Shown: positions 1 to 10,489 of the stretch, in pieces
Position numbering within the stretch: the first letter of the stretch is position 1
Layout of the letters: the number at the start of each line of letters is the position of its first letter
Source: a virus
Lineage: Duplodnaviria > Heunggongvirae > Uroviricota > Caudoviricetes
Reading direction: 5' to 3' (one strand)
Length of the DNA: 10,489 bases
Virus record (IMG/VR): IMGVR_UViG_2703718820_000012
Location: 1-10,489 of that record
Program-made: the position numbers and the translations under genes
The notes under the pieces: model-generated
What the model was told of the DNA's origin: nothing
What the model saw: only the letters and a program-made list of their open reading frames with translations
Databases searched by the model: none

Positions 1-1
1 G

Positions 2-688
2 GACCAGGAAAAATGGAGCGGCGACGGTGCCGGACTCAAGGCCATCACCGGCGGCGATGCGGTGTCCGTGGACCCGAAATACCGGGATGCGTACTCCACG
101 CATATCCCGGCGGTAATTCTGGCCGTGAACAATAACCCGATGCGCTTCACCGACCGCAGCGGCGGCGTGTCACGCCGGCGGGTGATTATTCACTTCCCGG
201 AACAGATAGCCCCGCAGGAGCGCGACCCGCAGCTTAAGGACAAAATCACCCGCGAGCTGGCGGTCATCGTGCGTCACCTGATGCAGAAGTTCAGCGACCC
301 GATGCTCGCCCGGTCACTGCTTCAGTCCCAGCAGAACTCAGACGAGGCGCTGAACATCAAACGGGATGCCGACCCGACGTTTGATTTTATCGGCTATCTG
401 GAAACCCTGCCGCAGACCAGCGGCATGTATATGGGGAACGCCAGTATCATCCCGCGCAATTACCGTAAATACCTCTATCACGCCTATCTGGCCTACATGG
501 AGGCAAACGGCTACCGGAATGTACTCAGTCTGAAAATGTTCGGGCTGGGGCTGCCGGTGATGCTGAAGGAATACGGACTGAATTACGAGAAGCGCCATAC
601 CAAACAGGGGATACAGACCAACCTGACGCTGAAAGAGGAAAGCTACGGCGACTGGCTGCCAAAATGTGACGACCCTGCAACAGCCTGA
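2..688 (+). CDS. P4 alpha-like DNA primase/helicase, C-terminal portion (5' end lies upstream of the window)
   Basis: The listed ORF (62..688) starts at an internal GTG. The same frame is open from nt 2 with no stop in 2-61 (DQEKWSGDGAGLKAITGGDAVSVDPKYRD...). The sequence resembles the C-terminal region of phage/plasmid P4-family primases as I recall them. It is followed by an intrinsic terminator and by TGTTCACC iterons, the known binding motif of P4 alpha. Confidence 0.8.
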   Translation, partial: DQEKWSGDGAGLKAITGGDAVSVDPKYRDAYSTHIPAVILAVNNNPMRFTDRSGGVSRRRVIIHFPEQIAPQERDPQLKDKITRELAVIVRHLMQKFSDPMLARSLLQSQQNSDEALNIKRDADPTFDFIGYLETLPQTSGMYMGNASIIPRNYRKYLYHAYLAYMEANGYRNVLSLKMFGLGLPVMLKEYGLNYEKRHTKQGIQTNLTLKEESYGDWLPKCDDPATA

Positions 689-695
689 CCCACCT

Positions 696-720
696 GACCG
701 GCATCTGCCGGTCTTTTTTT
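696..720 (+). terminator. Rho-independent terminator of the primase gene
   Basis: Stem gaccggc (696-702) pairs with gccggtc (707-713), with loop atct, followed by a run of 7 T (714-720). It lies 8 nt after the TGA stop. Confidence 0.75.
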
Positions 721-738
721 ATCCCGACATCCCCCGAA

Positions 739-767
739 GGTGAACAATCCACTGTTCACTCTTCACT
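739..767. promoter_or_regulatory. Partial alpha-binding iteron cluster (TGTTCACC type)
   Basis: GGTGAACA at 739-746 is an exact reverse complement of TGTTCACC. TGTTCACT at 753-760 matches 7/8, and tcttcact at 760-767 matches 6/8. The arrangement is the same as at the start of each crr-like repeat further downstream. Confidence 0.55.
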
Positions 768-1149
768 GTATATCCCCCGTACCAATATGAATTTAGTGAC
801 AAGAAAACATAAGTTGAACAGGAAAACCCAAAGAACTTTTTATCCCCCTCCAGACATTACCTGTCGCATCCATATTGAGCAAAAAATCTCATAGATAGAG
901 TGGTATTATTAACGTTTATCGCTTATCTAAATAGTAAAAACAAAATGCGATTCTAATTTTATTCACAGGGTAAATAACTGAAATTATCTAAATAACTATA
1001 AACCCCTCATATATATAAATAAATTATACCACATAACCAAAATACGATATTCTGCTGAGATCATTAAATTTAAGCTTATTTCAATGGCTATTACTCTAAA
1101 GATTTGTTAATAACCAGTCGTCATGAAAATATACTTACAGTTATGTTTA

Positions 1150-1158
1150 TGCTATAAT
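1150..1158 (+). promoter_or_regulatory. Candidate extended -10 promoter element for the HAD gene
   Basis: tgcTATAAT has a TGn extension plus a perfect TATAAT at 1153-1158, 28 nt upstream of the ATG. No convincing -35 element is present. A strong Shine-Dalgarno GGGGAGG lies at 1175-1181. Confidence 0.35.
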
Positions 1159-1185
1159 CAGTGACAAATATTTTGGGGAGGAATT

Positions 1186-1872
1186 ATGAAAATTTGTTTT
1201 TTCGATATGGAGGGGACTTTACTTGAAAAGAACTCATATTTAGATAATGGAAAAGTTGCACCGAGCGCGTGGACAGTACTTGCCAAAGAAATCAGCGAAG
1301 CTTGTTTTATTGAAGAGGAAAAAACAAAAGATTTATGGCTAGCTAATAAATATATCAGCTATACACAATGGATGAAAGAAACTGTTGAAATACAAATCAA
1401 ACATGGAATGAACAAAAATCACCTACAAACGGTATTATCTCAAGCGAAGATACAAAAAGGTGCTGTGGAACTTATTCATTATTTGAAAAGTCAAGGATAC
1501 TTAACAGTATTGATATCTGGTGGGTTTAAAGAATTAGCAGACCTAACTCAAAAGAGCCTAAAAATAGATCATGCATATAGTGCTTGTGAATATTTTTTTA
1601 GGAAAGATGGTAGCATTGAGCACTTCAATCTATTACCAACAGATGAGGAAGGGAAACTGGTCTTCATGAAACACCTTGCCTCTGAATATAACGTAGAACT
1701 TGAAAATTGTATTTTTGTTGGCGATGGGAAGAATGATGTTTTTATCGCCAAAAATGTAGGTACTTCTATAGCCTTCAATGCTCAGAGAGAATTAAGAGAA
1801 GTATCTACATTTATTGTAGACCAAGAAACACCTGATTTATCAGCGATTATTGACCTTATTAGAACTATTTAA
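1186..1872 (+). CDS. HAD-superfamily hydrolase, subfamily IB (phosphoserine-phosphatase-like)
   Basis: A strong RBS (GGGGAGG) sits 4 nt upstream of the ATG. HAD motifs are visible: motif I FFDMEGTLL, motif II VLISGGF, and motif IV VGDGKNDVFIAKNVGTSIAFNA (GDGxND). The layout resembles SerB. The gene sits in AT-rich DNA. Confidence 0.8.
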   Translation: MKICFFDMEGTLLEKNSYLDNGKVAPSAWTVLAKEISEACFIEEEKTKDLWLANKYISYTQWMKETVEIQIKHGMNKNHLQTVLSQAKIQKGAVELIHYLKSQGYLTVLISGGFKELADLTQKSLKIDHAYSACEYFFRKDGSIEHFNLLPTDEEGKLVFMKHLASEYNVELENCIFVGDGKNDVFIAKNVGTSIAFNAQRELREVSTFIVDQETPDLSAIIDLIRTI

Positions 1873-2673
1873 TCGATTTTGGAAGTCAAGTTTATCTTTA
1901 ACTATTTCCAGTTGTTCCTCTAACTGTTTTATCTTTGATTCAGACTGTAATTTGTACTGATTAAATTCATTTAAGTCAAATTTCTCTGAGAAATAGTAAT
2001 CTCTCCCAAAAGAAATTAGCGAGAGGAATAACCCAACAACAGCGATCATCGTTCCTATTTTAGTTATCGATATAATTGATAATTTTTCAGTTAGCTCTTT
2101 GCTTATCTGCTCTTTTAGAACTACTGGTTCTAAAAAAGTTTTAGGAAAATTACTTATATCTGAAACACGGTAAGATCTATATTCATTATATTGTTCTATA
2201 ACATCATAAGAACTAGGCACAGCAGAAGCCGGTTGATAATTTGGATTTTTTTCTATTTCATGGAATACAACTCTAAAGAAAGATTTATCTTGCTCACTAT
2301 CAGTAACTGGAAGATATTCCTCTACAGCTGAGAAATTAATTAACAGTGTTGATATCGGACCGTTATATCCAGAATCGATAATACCAGTATTGAGTGCAAG
2401 AAACCCCTTTTGCGATAATCTATTTTTTAAAAATACATATGCAATAAAACCCTCTGGCACATGAAGTATTTCTTCTGATATTACAAAAGCCGAATCTTGC
2501 GGTTTAAGTAAAGTTCTTCCGAGAGATCTTACATGATTTTTTTCATCTTTAAAAAGAATTTCCCTAATAGAAAGATCCACACTTGATTTATTAGAATAAT
2601 CTTTTGTGATTTTTTTGTTATATCTATCACAAACAAACCCATATTCAATTGCTTTTTGAGCACTAATCTGCAT
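1840..2673 (-). CDS. dUTPase/dCTP-deaminase-fold protein with C-terminal transmembrane helix and coiled coil
   Basis: RBS aggtga lies upstream of the ATG at 2673. LKNRLSQKGFLALNTGIIDSGYNGPISTLLINFS aligns by eye with E. coli Dut ([35 protein letters not shown]) and Dcd ([33 protein letters not shown]). The hydrophobic stretch IGTMIAVVGLFLSLISFG spans aa 206-223 (nt 2005-2058). A heptad-like tail KLQSESKIKQLEEQLEIVKDKL follows. Confidence 0.75.
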   Translation of the reverse strand: MQISAQKAIEYGFVCDRYNKKITKDYSNKSSVDLSIREILFKDEKNHVRSLGRTLLKPQDSAFVISEEILHVPEGFIAYVFLKNRLSQKGFLALNTGIIDSGYNGPISTLLINFSAVEEYLPVTDSEQDKSFFRVVFHEIEKNPNYQPASAVPSSYDVIEQYNEYRSYRVSDISNFPKTFLEPVVLKEQISKELTEKLSIISITKIGTMIAVVGLFLSLISFGRDYYFSEKFDLNEFNQYKLQSESKIKQLEEQLEIVKDKLDFQNRLNSSNKVNNR

Positions 2674-2721
2674 ACTTCACCTAACTTAGCTTATTCTATC
2701 GAACAATAATTGAATCACATA

Positions 2722-2751
2722 GTTATAATGTAACTAGACGAATATATCCAA
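2722..2751 (-). promoter_or_regulatory. Candidate sigma70 promoter for the Dut/Dcd-like gene
   Basis: On the minus strand, TTGGAT (2746-2751) is followed by an 18-nt spacer and TATAAC (2722-2727), about 50 nt upstream of the ATG. This rests on a by-eye match to consensus only. Confidence 0.25.
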
Positions 2752-2892
2752 TGTTTTTGAATATATTATTGACGAAGCAAGTCAACTGATCAATACTGTG
2801 TATAAAAAAACAACATCTTCACCACATATAAAAAAAACATAAAATCATGGTACTACCTCAAAGTCCTGACTCCTGCTGAATTGCTTAATCAT

Positions 2893-2990
2893 AAGAAGCG
2901 CCATACAAAACAGGGAATAAAGAGCAACCTGACGCAAAAAGAGGAAAGCTACGGCCACTGGCTGCCAAAATGTTACGCTCCTGCAACAAC
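2893..2990 (+). pseudogene. Remnant of a second alpha-primase 3' end (copy B of the repeat)
   Basis: It encodes KKRHTKQGIKSNLTQKEESYGHWLPKCYAPATT, homologous to the last ~33 codons of the intact primase gene. There is no upstream coding body and the original stop is lost, so the frame reads on into the terminator and iterons. Confidence 0.75.
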
Positions 2991-2998
2991 CCTACCTA

Positions 2999-3022
2999 GA
3001 CCGTCCTCTGCCGGTCTTTTTT
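2999..3022 (+). terminator. Degenerate copy of the primase terminator
   Basis: gaccgtc (2999-3005) pairs with gccggtc (3010-3016) with one mismatch, followed by 6 T. It is homologous to the terminator at 696-720. Confidence 0.5.
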
Positions 3023-3039
3023 ATCCCGGCCCCCCAGAA

Positions 3040-3345
3040 GATGAACAATCCACTGTTCACCTTTCACCGTATATTCACCTGTTATCATACTGAAATTAAA
3101 AGAGAAAAATGAAAGGTGAACAGTGTGAACAATCAAATCAAAAAAACTCTTTTCTCCTTGTGTGATTTCAGTCCGGGGAATTAATCACCGGTATGAGTCA
3201 CACCGGCAGAATGCCGGAGGTGAAGAATCAAATGTTCACCCTTCACCCATTATTCACCACCTATCATACTGAAAGTAAAAGAGAAAACAGAAAGGTGAAC
3301 AGTGTGAACAGTTCTTTCGAAAAAAACTTTTTTCCTGTACGATAC
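3040..3345. promoter_or_regulatory. crr-like cis replication region: two ~125-bp direct repeats carrying TGTTCACC iterons
   Basis: Exact TGTTCACC occurs at 3054-3061 and 3233-3240. Exact GGTGAACA occurs at 3115-3122 and 3294-3301. 7/8 variants occur at 3040-3047, 3072-3079, 3124-3131, 3219-3226, 3251-3258 and 3303-3310. The units are about 3040-3165 and 3219-3345, with a 179-bp period. This matches the published description of P4 crr as two 120-bp repeats separated by 60 bp. Confidence 0.75.
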
Positions 3346-3618
3346 AGCATCAATCAAAGTAAAAATGAGCTTTCATTCCACATTAACTTACAGCCATTGG
3401 TATACAATTAGGTATACGCACAAAAGCTGAATTAAATAAAATAATTAAAAATCAAAGAAATAAAATACTTATTCAAACTCCGCCAGCCCAATCATGATTG
3501 GACGGTGTAAGGACAACACCAACAAAAACAGGAAGTTAGCAGTCTCAGCAGGACACCGACCAGACGGTGAGGAGACAAAAAAGGATACGCAAAGGAGCCG
3601 CGGCTCTCGAGTGACACA

Positions 3619-3649
3619 AAAGCCCGCTTATGCGGGCTTTTTGTTTTTC
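3619..3649 (+). terminator. Rho-independent terminator with no upstream protein-coding gene
   Basis: Stem aagcccgc (3620-3627) pairs with gcgggctt (3632-3639), with loop ttat, followed by tttgttttt. No ORF of 60 aa or more ends here. Confidence 0.65.
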
Positions 3650-3718
3650 CCTTAAGTTCCTAGCCGCTTATCTATAACTATGGAAAAATGTTAACCCTGA
3701 CTGTATGTTAACAAAGGG

Positions 3719-4933
3719 ATGTATATGTCGGTTTTTCATAACTGGCTGCTTGATATCGCAAGCGGGAATTACTTTATCTACATCAAACGCCTTTCTGCAA
3801 ACGACACAGGCGCAACAGGTGGCCATCAGGTCGGACTTTATATCCCCTCAAATATCGTTGAAAAGCTTTTTCCATCAATCAATCATACTCGCGAACTGAA
3901 CCCTTCAGTCTTCCTTACTGCGCATGTATCATCCCATGATTGCCCTGATACCCAAGCACGCGCAATTTATTACAACAACCGTTATTTTGGTAAGACCCGA
4001 AACGAAAAAAGAATTACGCGCTGGGGGAGAGGAAGTCCATTACAGAACCCTGAAAATACAGGAGCCCTCACAATTCTTGCTTTCAGGTTAAACGAACAGA
4101 ACACTGACTGTTCCGAGGTAGATATATGGGTCTGCGTCAATCCCGATGAAGAGGATATCATCGAGTCTGCTATTGGCGAAATCATACCTGGAACCCTAAT
4201 TTCCGGCCCTGCCGGACAAATTTTGGGCGGATTGTCTCTTCAGCAAACTCCAGTAAATCATAAATATGTTATTCCTGAAGACTGGAAGAAGCGTTTTCCT
4301 TCTGGAAACGAAATTATTCAATATGCTGCTGGCCATTATGCTAAAAACTCCAAGGATCCAGATGAGCAACTGATTGACCGTCGGCGTGTCGAGTATGATA
4401 TTTTTCTACTCGTCGAGGAATTACATGTTCTTGATATTATTAAGAAAGGATTCGATTCTGTAGATGAGTTTATTGCATTAGCCAACTCTGTCAGTAATCG
4501 ACGTAAATCAAGGGCAGGCAAATCACTTGAACTTCACCTAGAGAAGCTTTTTATCGAGCACGGACTACGGCATTTCTCCACTCAGGCAGTTACTGAAGGT
4601 AATAAAAAACCAGATTTCCTGTTTCCTTCAGCAGAGGCATATCATAACGTTGAATTTCCTGTAGAAAACTTACGTATGCTGGCAGTAAAGACCACCTGCA
4701 AAGATCGCTGGCGTCAGATACTGAATGAAGCAGATAAAATCCATCAGGTACATTTATTTACACTGCAAGAAGGTGTTTCTTCAGCACAATACCGAGAAAT
4801 GAAAGATGCGGGTGTCAGACTCGTTGTACCATCAACTTTACATAAAAAATACCCAGAAGCAGTTAGAGAAGAATTAATAACGCTCGGAGCATTCATTACT
4901 GAGCTGATAGAGCTTTACGCTGAACTATCATAG
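3719..4933 (+). CDS. ecoRIIR: Type IIE restriction endonuclease, EcoRII family (CCWGG)
   Basis: The 404-aa product is near-colinear with EcoRII as I recall it (SVFHNWLL...YIKRLSANDTGATGGHQVGLYIP...KKPDFLFPS...LAVKTTCKDRWRQILNEADK). Counting from the ATG at 3719, residues fall on the literature numbering: R88, E271, D299, Y308, K324, E337. An alternative ATG at 3725 has better SD spacing. Confidence 0.93.
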   Translation: MYMSVFHNWLLDIASGNYFIYIKRLSANDTGATGGHQVGLYIPSNIVEKLFPSINHTRELNPSVFLTAHVSSHDCPDTQARAIYYNNRYFGKTRNEKRITRWGRGSPLQNPENTGALTILAFRLNEQNTDCSEVDIWVCVNPDEEDIIESAIGEIIPGTLISGPAGQILGGLSLQQTPVNHKYVIPEDWKKRFPSGNEIIQYAAGHYAKNSKDPDEQLIDRRRVEYDIFLLVEELHVLDIIKKGFDSVDEFIALANSVSNRRKSRAGKSLELHLEKLFIEHGLRHFSTQAVTEGNKKPDFLFPSAEAYHNVEFPVENLRMLAVKTTCKDRWRQILNEADKIHQVHLFTLQEGVSSAQYREMKDAGVRLVVPSTLHKKYPEAVREELITLGAFITELIELYAELS

Positions 4934-4938
4934 GCTGA

Positions 4939-4961
4939 CTCCCGGCTTAAAAGGCCGGGAG
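4939..4961. terminator. Hairpin between the convergent R and M genes (possible bidirectional terminator)
   Basis: ctcccggc (4939-4946) pairs with gccgggag (4954-4961), with loop ttaaaag. It sits in the 34-nt gap between the two stop codons. Neither side has a clear T tract. Confidence 0.45.
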
Positions 4962-4967
4962 ATGTTC

Positions 4968-6401
4968 TCAAGGCTGCCCAGTCTTACCAGCATCAGCAGA
5001 AACAGCTTTGAGGATATAGGGTTCCAGAAGTCTGGCAACAGCTTCAAATACTGGCACCACAACTGAGTTACCGAACTGCCGATATGACTGAGTATCTGAA
5101 ACCGGAATACGGAATGGTTTCCCTCCAGGTTTTTCAAATCCCATAAGGCGTGCACACTCTCGGGGAGTCAGCCTGCGTGGTCGACGAGCCTGATTACTCT
5201 CATTCATAAAGTCAGCCTCTCCCGTTGCCATATCCCAACCACGATCAATAAGAATTTCTGATCCGTCTTTGTGATATCTGGCAGAAAGTGTGCGTGCAAT
5301 GCTTTCCTTATTCTCAGGATTGACCAACCCAAAGCCAAAACCATTCCCCTTGGCTGCATGCTTTTTGGCGTAGTTATAAAGGTACTCCCATAGTTTTGGC
5401 GTAAGTATATATTTACTGTCGACTACAGGCTCCAGCAATTCACCAAATGATGGGCGGTGTTCCGGATAAAAACGACTGATATCACGCAAGGTAAACCCCT
5501 TGTGAATATTCAGATCTCGTCTAAATCCGACCAGAACAATGCGTTCACGATGCTGAGGCAAAAAATGCTTCCCATCGATAATCTTTGGATCGTTTTTTCC
5601 CATTTCTGCAGCATCGGCAACTTCGTAGCCCAGCTCGTCAAGGGTCTCCATAATCACTTTGAAAGTTTTACCCTTATCATGGCTCTTCAGATTTTTGACA
5701 TTTTCCAGCACAAAAATTGCCGGTTTTTTTGCTCGTATAATACGTGCCACGTCAAAAAAAAGTGTTCCTTGTGCTTCACATTCAAAACCATGCGCACGAC
5801 CAAGTGAGTTTTTCTTACTAACACCAGCAAGGCTAAATGGCTGGCACGGGAACCCCGCAAGAAGCACATCATGATCCGGCACATGCTCATCAATATATGC
5901 ATAAGCATCCGTTTCCAATACATCGGTTTTATCACTCAGCGTGACTTCCCGAATATCGAGATTGAATTTATGCACCTGTTCATCGTTAAACCAGTTGGCT
6001 TTGTATGTACGCACAGCATCTTTATTCCATTCACTGGTAAAAACACACTGGCCTCCAATGGCCTCAAAACCTTTCCGTATCCCTCCAATTCCAGCAAATA
6101 AGTCAATGAAGCGGAAAGCATATTCCGGATGGTTTGCAGGTGGTTCTGGTAGCATCTTACGCAGAAGAGACTCTTCTACTGAAGTCAACGATTTTGGTAA
6201 ACACTTGCCATTAATCCAGCGGTTAATGGTTTCACGGCTCCACTCATTTTTTCCGACTTTTCTCAGTAATTCAGCCACATACTTCTGATCATAGATTTCC
6301 AGCACTTTCTCGATAAGCTTTTTATCATTTTCCTGTCGCAGCTTTTCTTCCGCCTCGGCTTCCTTCAGCAGATGCTGTGCCAACACTTCAAATTCAGACA
6401 T
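4968..6401 (-). CDS. ecoRIIM: DNA (cytosine-5) methyltransferase, M.EcoRII/Dcm family (CCWGG)
   Basis: The C5-MTase motifs are all present: [10 protein letters not shown] (I), GFPCQPFS (IV), FVLENVKNL (VI), QHRERIV (VIII), [11 protein letters not shown] (IX) and GNSVVVPV (X). The preferred start is the ATG at 6401 (MSEFEVLAQ...), preceded by GGAGG 5 nt upstream. This gives 477 aa and places the catalytic Cys at position 186, as in M.EcoRII. The ORF-track start at 6443 has no RBS. Confidence 0.93.
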
Positions 6402-6762
6402 AATTCCTCCAAGGGGTCTAATGGGTGAAACTTTATCACTCATTCAACCCAGAAGGAAATGTTTTATCTGGATATTTAAACAGTGACTACAACGTAATCT
6501 AGCACTGGTGATGCTTTGTTAGGCATAGAGAATCATTCTATATACGACTAATGACAGAAAAACAGCAGACAAGTAGTTTGTTCATAAATTAACGCATACT
6601 ATGTGTCTACGGTTTTCGAGACCGGTCCAATCATCAAACGAAACATAAAATTAGCTCACATTATGAGGAAAAGTATCTTTTTTGTACTATGTAAATTCAA
6701 AGGCTTAGCCTCATTTCTCCGATGGTTTTCTCAACACTACTGGTTGTGAGCCCTTGCAATGA

Positions 6763-7581
<819 letters not shown>

Positions 7582-7600
7582 GTCTTTAAGTGATAAGCAT

Positions 7601-7642
7601 AAACCGCAGCACGATCTTCTTCCATACGACGTGCTACGGTTT
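7601..7642. terminator. Long hairpin between the convergent GIY-YIG and invertase genes
   Basis: aaaccgcagcacg (7601-7613) pairs with cgtgctacggttt (7630-7642). The stem is 13 bp with one mismatch and the loop is 16 nt. It abuts the invertase stop codon. The T tracts are weak. Confidence 0.45.
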
Positions 7643-8196
7643 CATTTATCTCCGACCGGAAACTTCTTATACAGTGTCGATATACCAACATCATAGATGA
7701 TCGCCACCTTCTGGCGAGGAACGCCTGATGCAATTAATCGCCCGGCCTGCGCCCATTGTTCTGGTGTAAGTTTGGGACGACGTCCACCAATTCGTCCCTG
7801 TGCGCGAGCAGCTTCCAGTCCAGCTTTTGTTCGTTCAACAATCAGTTCTCGTTCCATTTCAGCCAGGGCACCCATCACATGAAAGAAAAAACGCCCCATC
7901 GGTGTGCTGGTATCAATAGCATCCGTCAGACTGCGAAAATTAACGCCACGTTCGCGCAACTCCTCAACCAGAATGACCAGATGCCGCATACTACGCCCCA
8001 GCCGATCCAGCTTCCAGACAACCAGAGTGTCACCTGCCGATAATGTCCTGAGCAGTTTTTTCAGTCCCGGCCTTTCGGACTTTGTACCGCTTATCTTGTC
8101 TTCAAAAATCAGCTCGCATCCTGCACAGTTCAGCGCATTACGTTGTAGATCTGTGTTCTGGTCATTTGTTGATACGCGTACATAGCCAATAAGCAT
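7642..8196 (-). CDS. pin: Serine-recombinase DNA invertase (Pin/Gin/Hin/Cin family)
   Basis: MLIGYVRVSTNDQNTDLQRNAL...VVWKLDRLGRS...MGRFFFHVMGALAEMERELIVERT...GRIGGRRPKL...IYDVGISTLYKK is the hallmark of this family. It includes the catalytic Ser in YVRVST and a C-terminal HTH. The true start is the ATG at 8196, giving 184 aa, the same length as e14 Pin. The ORF-track start at 8232 adds 12 unsupported residues. Confidence 0.93.
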   Translation of the reverse strand: MLIGYVRVSTNDQNTDLQRNALNCAGCELIFEDKISGTKSERPGLKKLLRTLSAGDTLVVWKLDRLGRSMRHLVILVEELRERGVNFRSLTDAIDTSTPMGRFFFHVMGALAEMERELIVERTKAGLEAARAQGRIGGRRPKLTPEQWAQAGRLIASGVPRQKVAIIYDVGISTLYKKFPVGDK

Positions 8197-8250
8197 GGTA
8201 GATCCCCCTGACAAAAGCAGGAATGATGCCATCTGCTCGTTATTTCTGCA

Positions 8251-8276
8251 TTTTCATAAACGTTGGTTTGGGAGAA
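8251..8276. promoter_or_regulatory. 26-bp invertase crossover site (pix/gix-like), invertase-proximal
   Basis: ttttcataaacg-tt-ggtttgggagaa is the reverse complement of TTCTCCCAAACC-AA-CGTTTATGAAAA. This matches the Din-family AAACC-NN-GGTTT core. It lies in inverted orientation to the site at 9782-9807 and shares its central AA/TT dinucleotide. Confidence 0.85.
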
Positions 8277-8630
8277 GCGGCAAAACGGAATGTAGGTAAC
8301 GGGCAAAACCAAATTCCGGATATGGCGGCGTTTGCCAGTTCACTTTCATCAACGGGTTTTCAAAAACTCCCTTCAGGTCTGATTATTCAGTGGGGTATTG
8401 TCAGTGGAGCATCAAACTATACGGTGACTTACCCGGTAACATTCCCAAATCGTTCACTTGCGCTGTTGGCTGTGCCACATACAACGTCGGTGGCTGGTAT
8501 ATCTGCAATGGGCATAGCGAACTGTTCTGATATCAGCAAATCACAGTTCTATATAATTGTTGGCGGTATATCTCAGGGAGAAATTGTCAAATATGAAAGG
8601 TCCTGTTTTTGGGTAGCAATCGGTGTATAG
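8265..8630 (+). CDS. Alternative tail-fibre C-terminal cassette (silent orientation, no start of its own)
   Basis: [23 protein letters not shown]... parallels [23 protein letters not shown]... of the expressed fibre, then diverges. After inversion it would be in frame with the constant part (9796-10489). The ORF-track portion 8223-8264 lies outside the segment and is spurious. Confidence 0.75.
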   Translation, partial: GLGEAAKRNVGNGQNQIPDMAAFASSLSSTGFQKLPSGLIIQWGIVSGASNYTVTYPVTFPNRSLALLAVPHTTSVAGISAMGIANCSDISKSQFYIIVGGISQGEIVKYERSCFWVAIGV

Positions 8631-8638
8631 GTATATCT

Positions 8639-9034
8639 ATGATTTATTTCTCAAAATCGACTAATGGTTTTTTCTTTGATGGTATAAACAGCGACATGCC
8701 TGCTGACATTGTTGAGATAAGTACAGACTTATACAATGAATTAATTGCCGGACAGCAGGAAGGGGGGAAATTAATCACGTCAGATGAAAATGGTTTACCG
8801 GTACTGAAATCTCCGGCGATTGATTATGTCGCACGTGCTGAAAATCAGCGAATGCAGTTACTTGCTCATGCCGATAATGTCACAGCTGACTGGCGGGTGG
8901 AATTAATGCTTGGTGATATCAGCAGTACAGATAAAGAAAAACTATCTGCCTGGATGGACTACAAAAAAGAAGTAAAAGCCGTCGACACTTCGACGGCTCC
9001 TGAGATTAGCTGGCCTGAGTTACCGGAGGTGTAG
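8639..9034 (+). CDS. tfa: Tail-fibre assembly protein (partner of the silent cassette)
   Basis: MIYFSKSTNGFFFDG...LYNELIAGQ...[30 protein letters not shown] follows the typical Tfa/U-family layout. It lies directly downstream of the fibre cassette. The start is placed at the ATG at 8639 rather than the ORF-track start at 8609. Confidence 0.8.
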   Translation: MIYFSKSTNGFFFDGINSDMPADIVEISTDLYNELIAGQQEGGKLITSDENGLPVLKSPAIDYVARAENQRMQLLAHADNVTADWRVELMLGDISSTDKEKLSAWMDYKKEVKAVDTSTAPEISWPELPEV

Positions 9035-9425
9035 GCCATTCAATATCTGGCGCACCGGAAGTATCGACCAGTTCCAGTGCGTCCAGGTAATCCAGCCACA
9101 AATTATATTGTGCCAGTTCCTCACCTTTCAGCCGGCCAATAGCCGCTTTACCAGGCCATTGTTTACTGTTCATATAATCGTTGGCCTGTTCAATAAGTAT
9201 ATTTTTCATTCCCTCCGCTTCAGCTATTTCCTGTTCATGTGTCTTCGCTGGATATTCAGTAAGTACAGGGTAGTTATCCGGGCTATTGATAATAATTTTC
9301 CCCGTACTCTGACCATTCATAAGTTCATAATAAAGAGCATCTTCAATATCGAAAGCATCATCGGGAATATCGCTGTTGTTTTCAGAGAAAAATCCCTGAA
9401 CAGATGGGGACCATTTCATTTTCAT
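9006..9425 (-). CDS. tfa: Tail-fibre assembly protein (partner of the expressed fibre)
   Basis: [15 protein letters not shown]...LYYELMNGQ...[28 protein letters not shown] is a paralogue of the 8639-9034 product. Its start overlaps the fibre stop (ATGA overlap at 9422-9425). Confidence 0.8.
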
Positions 9426-10489
9426 AATTTCCCAATTCCTAAAATATGGACATCATCAGCCTTACGGGCATTCCAGGTGACAATTACATCGGTAGAGTGA
9501 CGATTAACTGAGATTGCGTATGCTTCGTTAGTCGAGCCAGAAACTTTTGTGGCAAACACAGCAAACAGGACACCAAATGACTGGGGCCATTTATAGCCTG
9601 ACAGCTGATAATTACCATTATCCAGTGTTACAGCTTTGACTGCTGCACTTGATGGAATCGTCAGCCACTGGAGTATCAACCCTCCTGGCAAAAGTTGTTT
9701 TCCATAAAAATCCCTCACACCACTAAATGAAACCATATCCGGTATCTGATTTTCCCCTGTTCCCACGTCCCGTTTTGCCGCTTCTCCCAAACCAAGGTTT
9801 TCGAGAGCCGTTTGCACAGTGCCATCCGATTTGATATCGCCAAACGGATTCTTGCGGCTTAACAGCAGCGCACGAAGTGCGGTAAGCATCTGGTCATGCC
9901 GCCCTTTCTCCAGGCTGGCACCGGAGGCCTCCACCACGCTACAAAGTTCTTCCTGCAACATGTCAAAGTAGTCATCATCCAGATCGGTGGCAGGTGTGCC
10001 GGTCTGGGGGTTACCACGGGTATCCGGTTTGTCGGTGTTACTGCCCTGACCGTTCTCTCTGTGACGATGCCCGTTATAGGCAAGCCGCATCGCTGACATG
10101 GTGGTGCCGCCGGAGTCGCACAGGTCTTTCACCTGTCCGGTCACTTCCAGGTCCATTTCAAAACGTGCTTCAGGTGCATTGCGAAACGTGATCGTTTTAC
10201 CTGCACCGTCCACCACGATCCCCTCCCGGGTCAGCGTCACGGACTGCCCCTGATCGTCATAGACAGCCACCTCGCCCGTCTGCAGCCCTTTCAGGCGGTA
10301 GCGACGGTCCGACACCGTAACAACCACCGCATGAGAACGGTCGCCATCCGGAAACAACACCACCGCTTCCGCACCGCTGTTTGCCCTTGCGGTAAAACCG
10401 TAGGGTTCAAGATGTTCAACCCCGGCTTTGGGTTCACCGGCAATCAGGGACACATCCACGGTCTGTAGTGGCACACTAAATTTGGCCAC
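9422..10489 (-). CDS. Tail protein: Mu Gp45-like baseplate domain fused to an invertible tail-fibre C-terminus (5' end probably beyond the window)
   Basis: The N-terminal part [55 protein letters not shown]...YNGHRHRE resembles the Mu Gp45 / baseplate assembly V family. The C-terminal part [37 protein letters not shown]...[13 protein letters not shown] is tail-fibre-like and crosses the inversion site at 9794/9795. The frame is open to the window edge. Confidence 0.75.
9782..9807. promoter_or_regulatory. 26-bp invertase crossover site (pix/gix-like), within the fibre gene
   Basis: TTCTCCCAAACC-AA-GGTTTTCGAGAG is a near-palindromic Din-family site. It is inverted relative to 8251-8276 and sits at the constant/variable junction of the fibre ORF (codons LENLGLGE). 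Confidence 0.85.

Follow-up and report, generated by a model that had tools for sequence, protein, structure and literature searches.

Comparison with described contractile-tail systems

Prophages of the SfV/e14 family combine a lambdoid genome with a Mu-like contractile tail. In SfV and its relatives SfI, SfII and SfIV, the tail module (orf16–orf22) runs in the order V–gp46–gp47–gp48–short fibre–tfa, in which all genes are separate and complete and the baseplate spike gene V is orf17, annotated as 'similar to phage Mu GP45'. The e14 element of Escherichia coli K-12, which is without most of its tail genes, carries the invertible P segment, the invertase gene pinE, the fibre genes stfP/stfE and the chaperone genes tfaP/tfaE. 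In phage Mu, gp45 and the fibre are separate proteins, located at the baseplate centre and at the wedge periphery, respectively (PMC11915804). Here we analyse a stretch of viral DNA of 10,489 nt (IMG/VR record IMGVR_UViG_2703718820_000012, positions 1 to 10,489; hereafter the window), at the right end of which a single open reading frame (ORF) of 355 codons on the minus strand (9422..10489, stop at 9422–9424, open from the window edge at 10489) runs from V-type spike sequence into short tail-fibre sequence. A preliminary description of this DNA had read the ORF as an expressed chimeric gene and offered two explanations, a deletion in a decaying prophage or a genuine spike-tip architecture, without choosing between them. 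Our results indicate that the ORF is very probably a deletion-derived pseudogene carrying two independent lesions in a defective E. coli prophage of the SfV/e14 family, and not a new spike architecture.

The locus resembles each of the described systems in part. Its V portion is 97% identical at the amino acid level to SfV orf17, but the window has a V–fibre fusion and no gp46–48 where the SfV genes are all separate, and no invertible segment is present in the SfV region shown. With e14 it shares a Pin-like invertase, two fibre tips with two chaperones, an adjoining variable defence locus and the condition of a deletion-ridden remnant, and its crossover motif, present twice in inverted orientation, agrees with 15 of the 16 bases of CCTTCTCCCAAACCAA. 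However, the fibre gene of e14 and its relatives has its own start and comes after ymfQ, whereas the fibre sequence of the window is without its first 21 codons and without ymfQ, and its frame runs on from V. The likeness to Mu lies in the front of the ORF, which belongs to the Gp45 family, and in a fibre C-terminus switched by a serine invertase, as in the Mu G segment (gp49–52, Gin); Mu gp45 itself is matched distantly and only in part.

Composition of the fused reading frame

The ORF is made up of 8 codons from the inverted repeat of an insertion sequence (IS), codons 30–177 of V, codons 22–220 of a fibre gene and a stop codon. Residues 7–63 fit the Pfam profile PF06890 ('Bacteriophage Mu Gp45, N-terminal') with E=5e-20 and a score of 71.7 bits, the curated cut-off being 24.1; the match spans only profile positions 12–68 of 68. 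Residues 8–95 match the solved structure of the Mu spike gp45 (PDB 9ki1 chain V, E=1.4e-9). The fibre-derived part, aligned over 56% of the ORF, is identical at the amino acid level (100%) to P0002, a stand-alone 220-aa E. coli protein annotated as 'gp53-like domain-containing protein', although the Pfam Gp53-like_C profile scores under its cut-off on this part (17.6 versus 24.9 bits). These results confirm that one open frame passes from a Gp45-like front, now assigned by formal domain annotation above cut-off, into fibre sequence; both peptides quoted in the preliminary description are present in it.

The V remnant (10023..10463, minus strand; codons 30–177 of 182) derives from the baseplate spike gene homologous to Mu gp45 and SfV orf17. 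The beta-helix, the H-x-H apex motif (GHRHRENG) and the greater part of the OB-fold N-domain are still there, and 29 residues at the N-terminus and 5 at the C-terminus (KAMEA) are lost. Every V homologue stops ~6–10 residues or less past the H-x-H motif, a putative metal binder; here the native end, KAMEA and stop, is exchanged for 199 fibre residues. Where V is a stand-alone gene it lies between the hub gene gp44 and gp46, but in the window the fibre follows directly. The baseplate genes gp46–48, which the preliminary description had noted to lie between the two genes in Mu-like phages, are absent between V and fibre within the window.

The fibre gene remnant (9422..10020, minus strand) is of the stfP or SfV orf21 short tail-fibre type, and its first 21 codons (MHRIDTKTAQKDKFGAGKNGF) are absent; fibre homologues align to the ORF from their own residue 21 onward in a HMMER scan. 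It consists of a constant part, from 10020 to ~9796, and the variable C-terminus now in frame, from ~9779 to 9422, both on the minus strand.

An AlphaFold2 monomer model of the fusion, based on a 17-sequence alignment, gave a mean pLDDT of 35.8 and a pTM of 0.25 and is uninterpretable; the input alignment is shallow and its sequences are nearly identical, and the parent proteins are obligate trimers. A promoter scan of the window found nothing promoter-like upstream of the ORF. Its one consensus match, at 9131–9102 on the minus strand, lies downstream inside a chaperone gene, and the number of sites is below chance expectation.

A deletion junction between two intact parental genes

When compared with 5,426 complete E. 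coli genomes by megablast, the ORF falls into two separate alignment blocks. Window positions 6607–10022, which contain a GIY-YIG gene, pinE, the invertible fibre segment and the fibre gene, have 98.3% nucleotide identity to E. coli DAM (L001 7415–10823). Positions 10021–10465 are identical in 445 of 445 nt to the V gene of E. coli EF7-18-58 (L002 6001–6445), annotated as 'phage baseplate assembly protein V', and are 97.8% identical to the V gene of DAM (L001 12951–13395). The two blocks overlap at 10021..10022, a 2-bp TA microhomology of both parents that marks the deletion junction. In DAM, the block reaching window position 10022 ends at 10823 and the block starting at window position 10021 begins at 12951, and E. 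coli ETEC1717 (L005) shows equal spacing (14093 and 16221), so that 2129 bp found in both genomes are absent from the window. The missing sequence comprises the last 5 codons of V, gp46, gp47/J, gp48/YmfQ and the first 21 codons of the fibre gene. The parental order V–gp46–gp47–gp48–fibre–tfa is common to DAM, ETEC1717, a further genome (L009) and the viable phage SfV. The intact V protein ends in SNTDKPDKAMEA followed by the stop, while in the fusion protein SNTDKPD of V is continued by TRGNPQTG of the fibre. The preliminary description had placed the junction at about 9990–10020, the actual position of 10021/10022 being at the upper edge of that estimate.

As to the normal state of V, 1087 out of 1094 E. 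coli genomes that have this V gene match it over at least 80% of its length. It was full-length and flanked by gp44 and gp46 in 59 of 60 records sampled across the 1,094-genome ranking. As an in-frame join has a one-in-three prior for a random deletion, the open frame across the junction is not evidence of selection.

An IS end in place of the start of V

The second lesion lies at the other end of the ORF. Window positions 10464..10489 (plus strand) are the left terminal inverted repeat (TGTAGTGGCACACTAAATTTGGCCAC) of an IS3-family element, the remainder of which is past the window. The match to V ends at 10465, so that the TG at 10464–10465 can be assigned to V or to the IS, and the first 8 codons of the ORF (10466–10489) lie in the 26-nt inverted repeat and not in V. 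The repetitive nature of this end is evident from a 35-nt query taken from it, which gave 8,102 matches in 3,590 E. coli genomes, with up to 16 per genome and 1,332 on plasmids. In E. coli MS1665 (L003 2508–3765), a 1258-bp element of the IS3 family has the identical 26 nt as its left end. Its IS3-family transposase is frameshifted, its right inverted repeat matches, it is flanked by a 3-bp target duplication, and it is located inside a head–tail joining gene. The transposase of the element is oriented to read away from the ORF. The exact IS–V junction was found in none of the E. coli genomes searched, where the best 35-nt matches were 94% identical.

The IS end stands in place of V codons 1–29, start codon included, and the ORF is therefore without its native start. 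The GTG at the window edge, from which the ORF derives its complete appearance, sits within the IS repeat; if the element resembles the MS1665 copy, the frame would hypothetically stay open for 40 further codons with no ATG among them. The preliminary description had missed the IS end, and with no native 5' end its term 'expressed gene' is unsupported; the term is true solely insofar as the invertible segment, in its present orientation, is in frame with the constant part. A break of a short-read contig at the repeat is probably the reason why the window stops at this point.

Occurrence of the fusion

Among 5.8 billion protein clusters, the full query is covered only by P0001 (355 aa, 100% identity), a cluster of one member whose sole source is metaclust. 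Nearly all other matches listed cover one half only (36–57% of the query), the exceptions being four 399-aa fibres with 81% coverage at 50% identity. One of these, P0088, was considered as a second fusion and rejected, as its coverage results from a gapped low-identity extension into the V part. A HMMER scan of 1.84 billion protein representatives returned 4,400 hits, of which none among the best 150 spans both halves: in this set, hits to the V half reach query position ~159 and end near the hit's own C-terminus, and hits to the fibre half run from query position ~155 and begin at hit residue 21. P0221, a 267-aa V homologue with two matched stretches, was likewise rejected as a fusion, since it has a longer beta-helix and no fibre part.

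At the DNA level, no junction-spanning alignment exists in the 5,426 complete E. coli genomes, and the junction string was not found in JGI metagenome contigs, IMG/VR or GTDB representative genomes. None of 50,697 phage records reaches a protein coverage of at least 80%; SfV-like phages match V and the fibre at separate places. Recurrence in independent genomes or in diverged homologues was thus not found, the one singleton protein being the only record. The preliminary description had looked to conservation across genomes to tell a real architecture from an accident, and no such conservation was found in the collections searched.

Other fusions of V do occur in decayed relatives, with the Rz lysis protein, the HK97 prohead protease and a Dam methylase as partners. 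In these proteins (P0067–P0070), the same V is joined in frame to unrelated phage genes via large internal deletions, and the existence of further accidental V fusions shows that such deletions are common in this prophage family. They differ from the window in that a foreign N-terminus precedes the C-terminus of V and V's own stop is kept, whereas in the window the C-terminus of V leads into the fibre. A second example of a join from the V C-terminus to a fibre was not found in the collections searched.

Origin of the fusion and alternative explanations

To explain the two lesions, we propose that an illegitimate, microhomology-mediated deletion of 2129 bp would have brought its ends together at the shared TA, by chance in frame, and that an IS3-family element would have inserted after V codon 29. 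The insertion would have removed the V start codon, the ribosome-binding site and the connection to the upstream late operon. We infer the order and the recency of the two events; recency is suggested by the lack of divergence, as the V part is identical in DNA and the fibre part identical in protein to extant intact genes. Prophage decay as such is a known phenomenon. In the cryo-EM structure of Mu, the spike's N-terminal end packs against the hub and the tape measure, and the N-terminus of the fibre docks on a loop of gp48, gp46–48 being the wedges (PMC11915804). With the spike N-terminus, the fibre N-terminus and gp46–48 all missing, the product of the fused ORF would not be expected to join a baseplate, and we infer that the ORF is neither expressed nor functional. 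Of the two explanations offered earlier, the deletion in a decaying prophage is thus borne out by separate genes of 98–100% identity lying 2129 bp apart, by the 2-bp microhomology, by the singleton status and by the IS.

Several observations weigh against this reading. The join is in frame, and it leaves the spike apex motif in place, the fibre tip complete and its chaperone present, so that a translated product is conceivable. The window stops 26 nt into the IS, and any further upstream element or read-through transcription lies beyond its view. The only other record of the fusion protein is metagenome-derived, and a report on e14 assigns a host function to fragments of its fibre genes (PMC12529663), which makes 'dead' a deduction in the present case.

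The open frame is also what would be seen in a genuine architecture, in which a central spike carries a switchable receptor-binding fibre tip at its C-terminus, possibly in the service of a tailocin or a satellite-encoded host-range module, by analogy with evolved VgrG or central tail-fibre proteins. This idea gains from the intact state of the invertase, both crossover sites, both tips and both chaperones, and from the P4-like satellite fragment and defence genes that adjoin. Nevertheless, it is barely credible: the fusion is a singleton in every collection searched, its halves are 98–100% identical in DNA to separate genes and hence have not diverged since the join, V codons 1–29 are lost to the IS end, the wedge genes gp46–48 are deleted and not moved elsewhere in the window, and the fibre module of the relatives sits in an SfV/e14-like prophage tail operon and not in a satellite. 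The preliminary description had itself held that a fusion unique to one genome and flanked by gene decay would be a pseudogene-type deletion, and both the uniqueness and the decay are found here. A different kind of error would be an assembly chimera, with the junction, and perhaps the contig end too, being an artefact of short-read metagenome assembly. The two sides have only 2 bp in common, far under an assembler k-mer, which leaves no repeat to mis-join; they also lie 2.1 kb from each other in one operon and point the same way, the pattern that a simple deletion leaves, and comparable real deletions are known in complete and draft genomes. An artefact is therefore very unlikely, even though the sole matching protein, P0001, comes from a metagenome-derived collection, an exact-protein look-up has no contig encoding it on record, and the window stops within an IS repeat as is typical of short-read contigs.

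The reported host function bears on another possibility, namely that the fibre part is an exapted fragment which, made from a fortuitous promoter or an internal start, serves the host, for example by blocking phage adsorption. In e14, flipping of the P segment is reported to give rise to the chimera StfE2, which prevents the adsorption of T2 (PMC12529663), and the present locus lies within a defence island with an EcoRII restriction–modification (R-M) system and PD-T4-3. Yet StfE2 as reported begins at the pin-proximal stfE side and not at the V-fused side, no promoter-like site precedes the ORF within the window, and a singleton carries no conservation signal; taken together, exaptation appears highly improbable. 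By analogy with StfE2, the truncated V–fibre ORF or an internally initiated fragment of it, transcribed by IS read-through or from a fortuitous promoter, might act as a Pin-switchable adsorption decoy at the surface or in the periplasm, to which we likewise give only a very slender chance. On the favoured reading, a pseudogene left by a deletion and an IS insertion, the fusion is of little importance alone, being textbook prophage erosion in which an internal deletion and an IS happened to leave a frame open. It does advise caution: before a domain-level chimera in a prophage tail module is taken for a new architecture, it should be compared with intact relatives that are nearly identical to it.

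The invertible fibre segment

The fibre part of the fused ORF runs into a P-type invertible segment, whose inverted crossover sites lie within fibre coding sequence and bound two alternative sets of tip plus chaperone. The Pin-type serine DNA invertase, a pinE homologue, is intact (7642..8232, minus strand; Pfam Resolvase, E=1e-51, and HTH_7), and pinE is annotated in DAM, EF7-18-58 and ETEC1717. The inverted repeats comprise a right arm at 9733..9800, with the crossover motif GCTTCTCCCAAACCAA at 9780–9795, and a left arm at 8258..8325, with the motif on the minus strand at 8263–8278. The motif is as published for the e14 P segment (PMC12529663) and occurs twice in inverted orientation, whereas 0 of 200 shuffles reach two matches. 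The tip now in frame is followed by its tail-fibre assembly chaperone (9006..9425, minus strand; Pfam Caudo_TAP, E=3e-22), the DAM counterpart of which is annotated as a tail fiber assembly protein. The alternative fibre C-terminus (8223..8630, plus strand; Pfam Gp53-like_C, E=2.1e-15), which would be joined to the constant part upon inversion, comes with an alternative chaperone (8609..9034, plus strand; Pfam Caudo_TAP, E=2.2e-24). Judging from the intact invertase gene and crossover arms, the segment is probably still able to invert, and Pin inversion would now switch the tail end of a dead gene.

Eroded relatives and a recurrent breakpoint in V

In the other V fusions, the Rz, HK97 prohead protease and Dam methylase partners are joined to V at one position (P0068, P0069, P0070). 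The DNA of the Rz and protease junction loci (L006 10001–10597, L007 10001–10654 and L008 6566–7219) has its V-side breakpoint within one nucleotide of V nt 134, directly before TGAACATCTTGAACCC. The Dam fusion P0070, read at the protein level only, breaks at the same residue ('EHLEPYGF', codon 45). Nested deletions that share one right-hand end in this way suggest a hotspot, or what was once the end of a mobile element. Such V-breakpoint variants are rare, as seen from the 1087 of 1094 E. coli genomes with a match to at least 80% of the gene. A Pin pseudo-site in the nearby V sequence, GAACCCTACGGTTTT, was considered as a cause of the deletion or of the codon-45 breakpoint and rejected by inspection, its spacer being 4 and not 2 nt and its position 13 nt off the breakpoint.

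E. coli EF7-18-58, the strain with the identical V sequence, holds another remnant of the same prophage family (L002 5580–7159), in which V is intact. There, gp46 is truncated against a pin-proximal fibre fragment and gp44 against a holin fragment, and an Avs2 gene lies beside pinE. This remnant independently supports erosion of the locus by deletions that spare its pin-plus-defence end.

Satellite fragment and defence island

The neighbourhood of the fusion, in which a P4-like satellite fragment, a defence island, pin and a switchable fibre adjoin, is biologically more interesting than the fusion itself. The window opens with the C-terminal part of a P4-alpha-type primase–helicase (1–688, plus strand), which enters from the left edge with its frame open from base 2. 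ETEC1717 has the full primase gene in a P4-like satellite that also carries psu, delta and icd-like genes, among others; no integrase separates this satellite from the defence island and the prophage fibre end, to which it is directly joined. Direct repeats of 85% identity, made up of the primase gene's 3' end, its terminator hairpin (GACCGGCATCTGCCGGTCTTTTTT) and a 48-nt unit, lie at 578–778 and 2884–3079, with a third, partial copy at 3211–3332. The ~2.1–2.3 kb between the first two copies are absent from ETEC1717, where the primase abuts the EcoRII R-M genes, and the repeat-flanked segment looks like a cassette insertion at a satellite-associated hot spot.

This segment encodes a HAD-family hydrolase of 228 aa (1186–1872, plus strand) and, convergent and overlapping with it, a 277-aa protein (1840–2673, minus strand) whose N-terminal part is weakly dCTP-deaminase/dUTPase-like (PF22769 at E=2e-5, under its cut-off). 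No PADLOC family matches either of them significantly. Only 5 of the 5,426 complete E. coli genomes have the pair, 3 of them at 99.8–100% identity, and it follows the same primase each time. The two genes are candidates for a nucleotide-depletion defence cassette.

Further to the right, a complete EcoRII-type restriction endonuclease (3719–4933, plus strand; EcoRII-N and EcoRII-C domains) and a convergent C5-cytosine methyltransferase of 491 aa (4968–6443, minus strand; DNA_meth_N domain) form a type II R-M system. They are followed by a LEM-3-like GIY-YIG protein (6808–7581, plus strand) with a full-length match to the PADLOC model PD-T4-3 (E=1e-139). PD-T4-3 is a known candidate anti-phage gene, and it directly adjoins pin here as in many E. 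coli genomes. Two complete genomes, L005 and L009, show the same layout of primase, variable defence genes, and pin with the fibre switch; their cargo is different and their tail operon intact.

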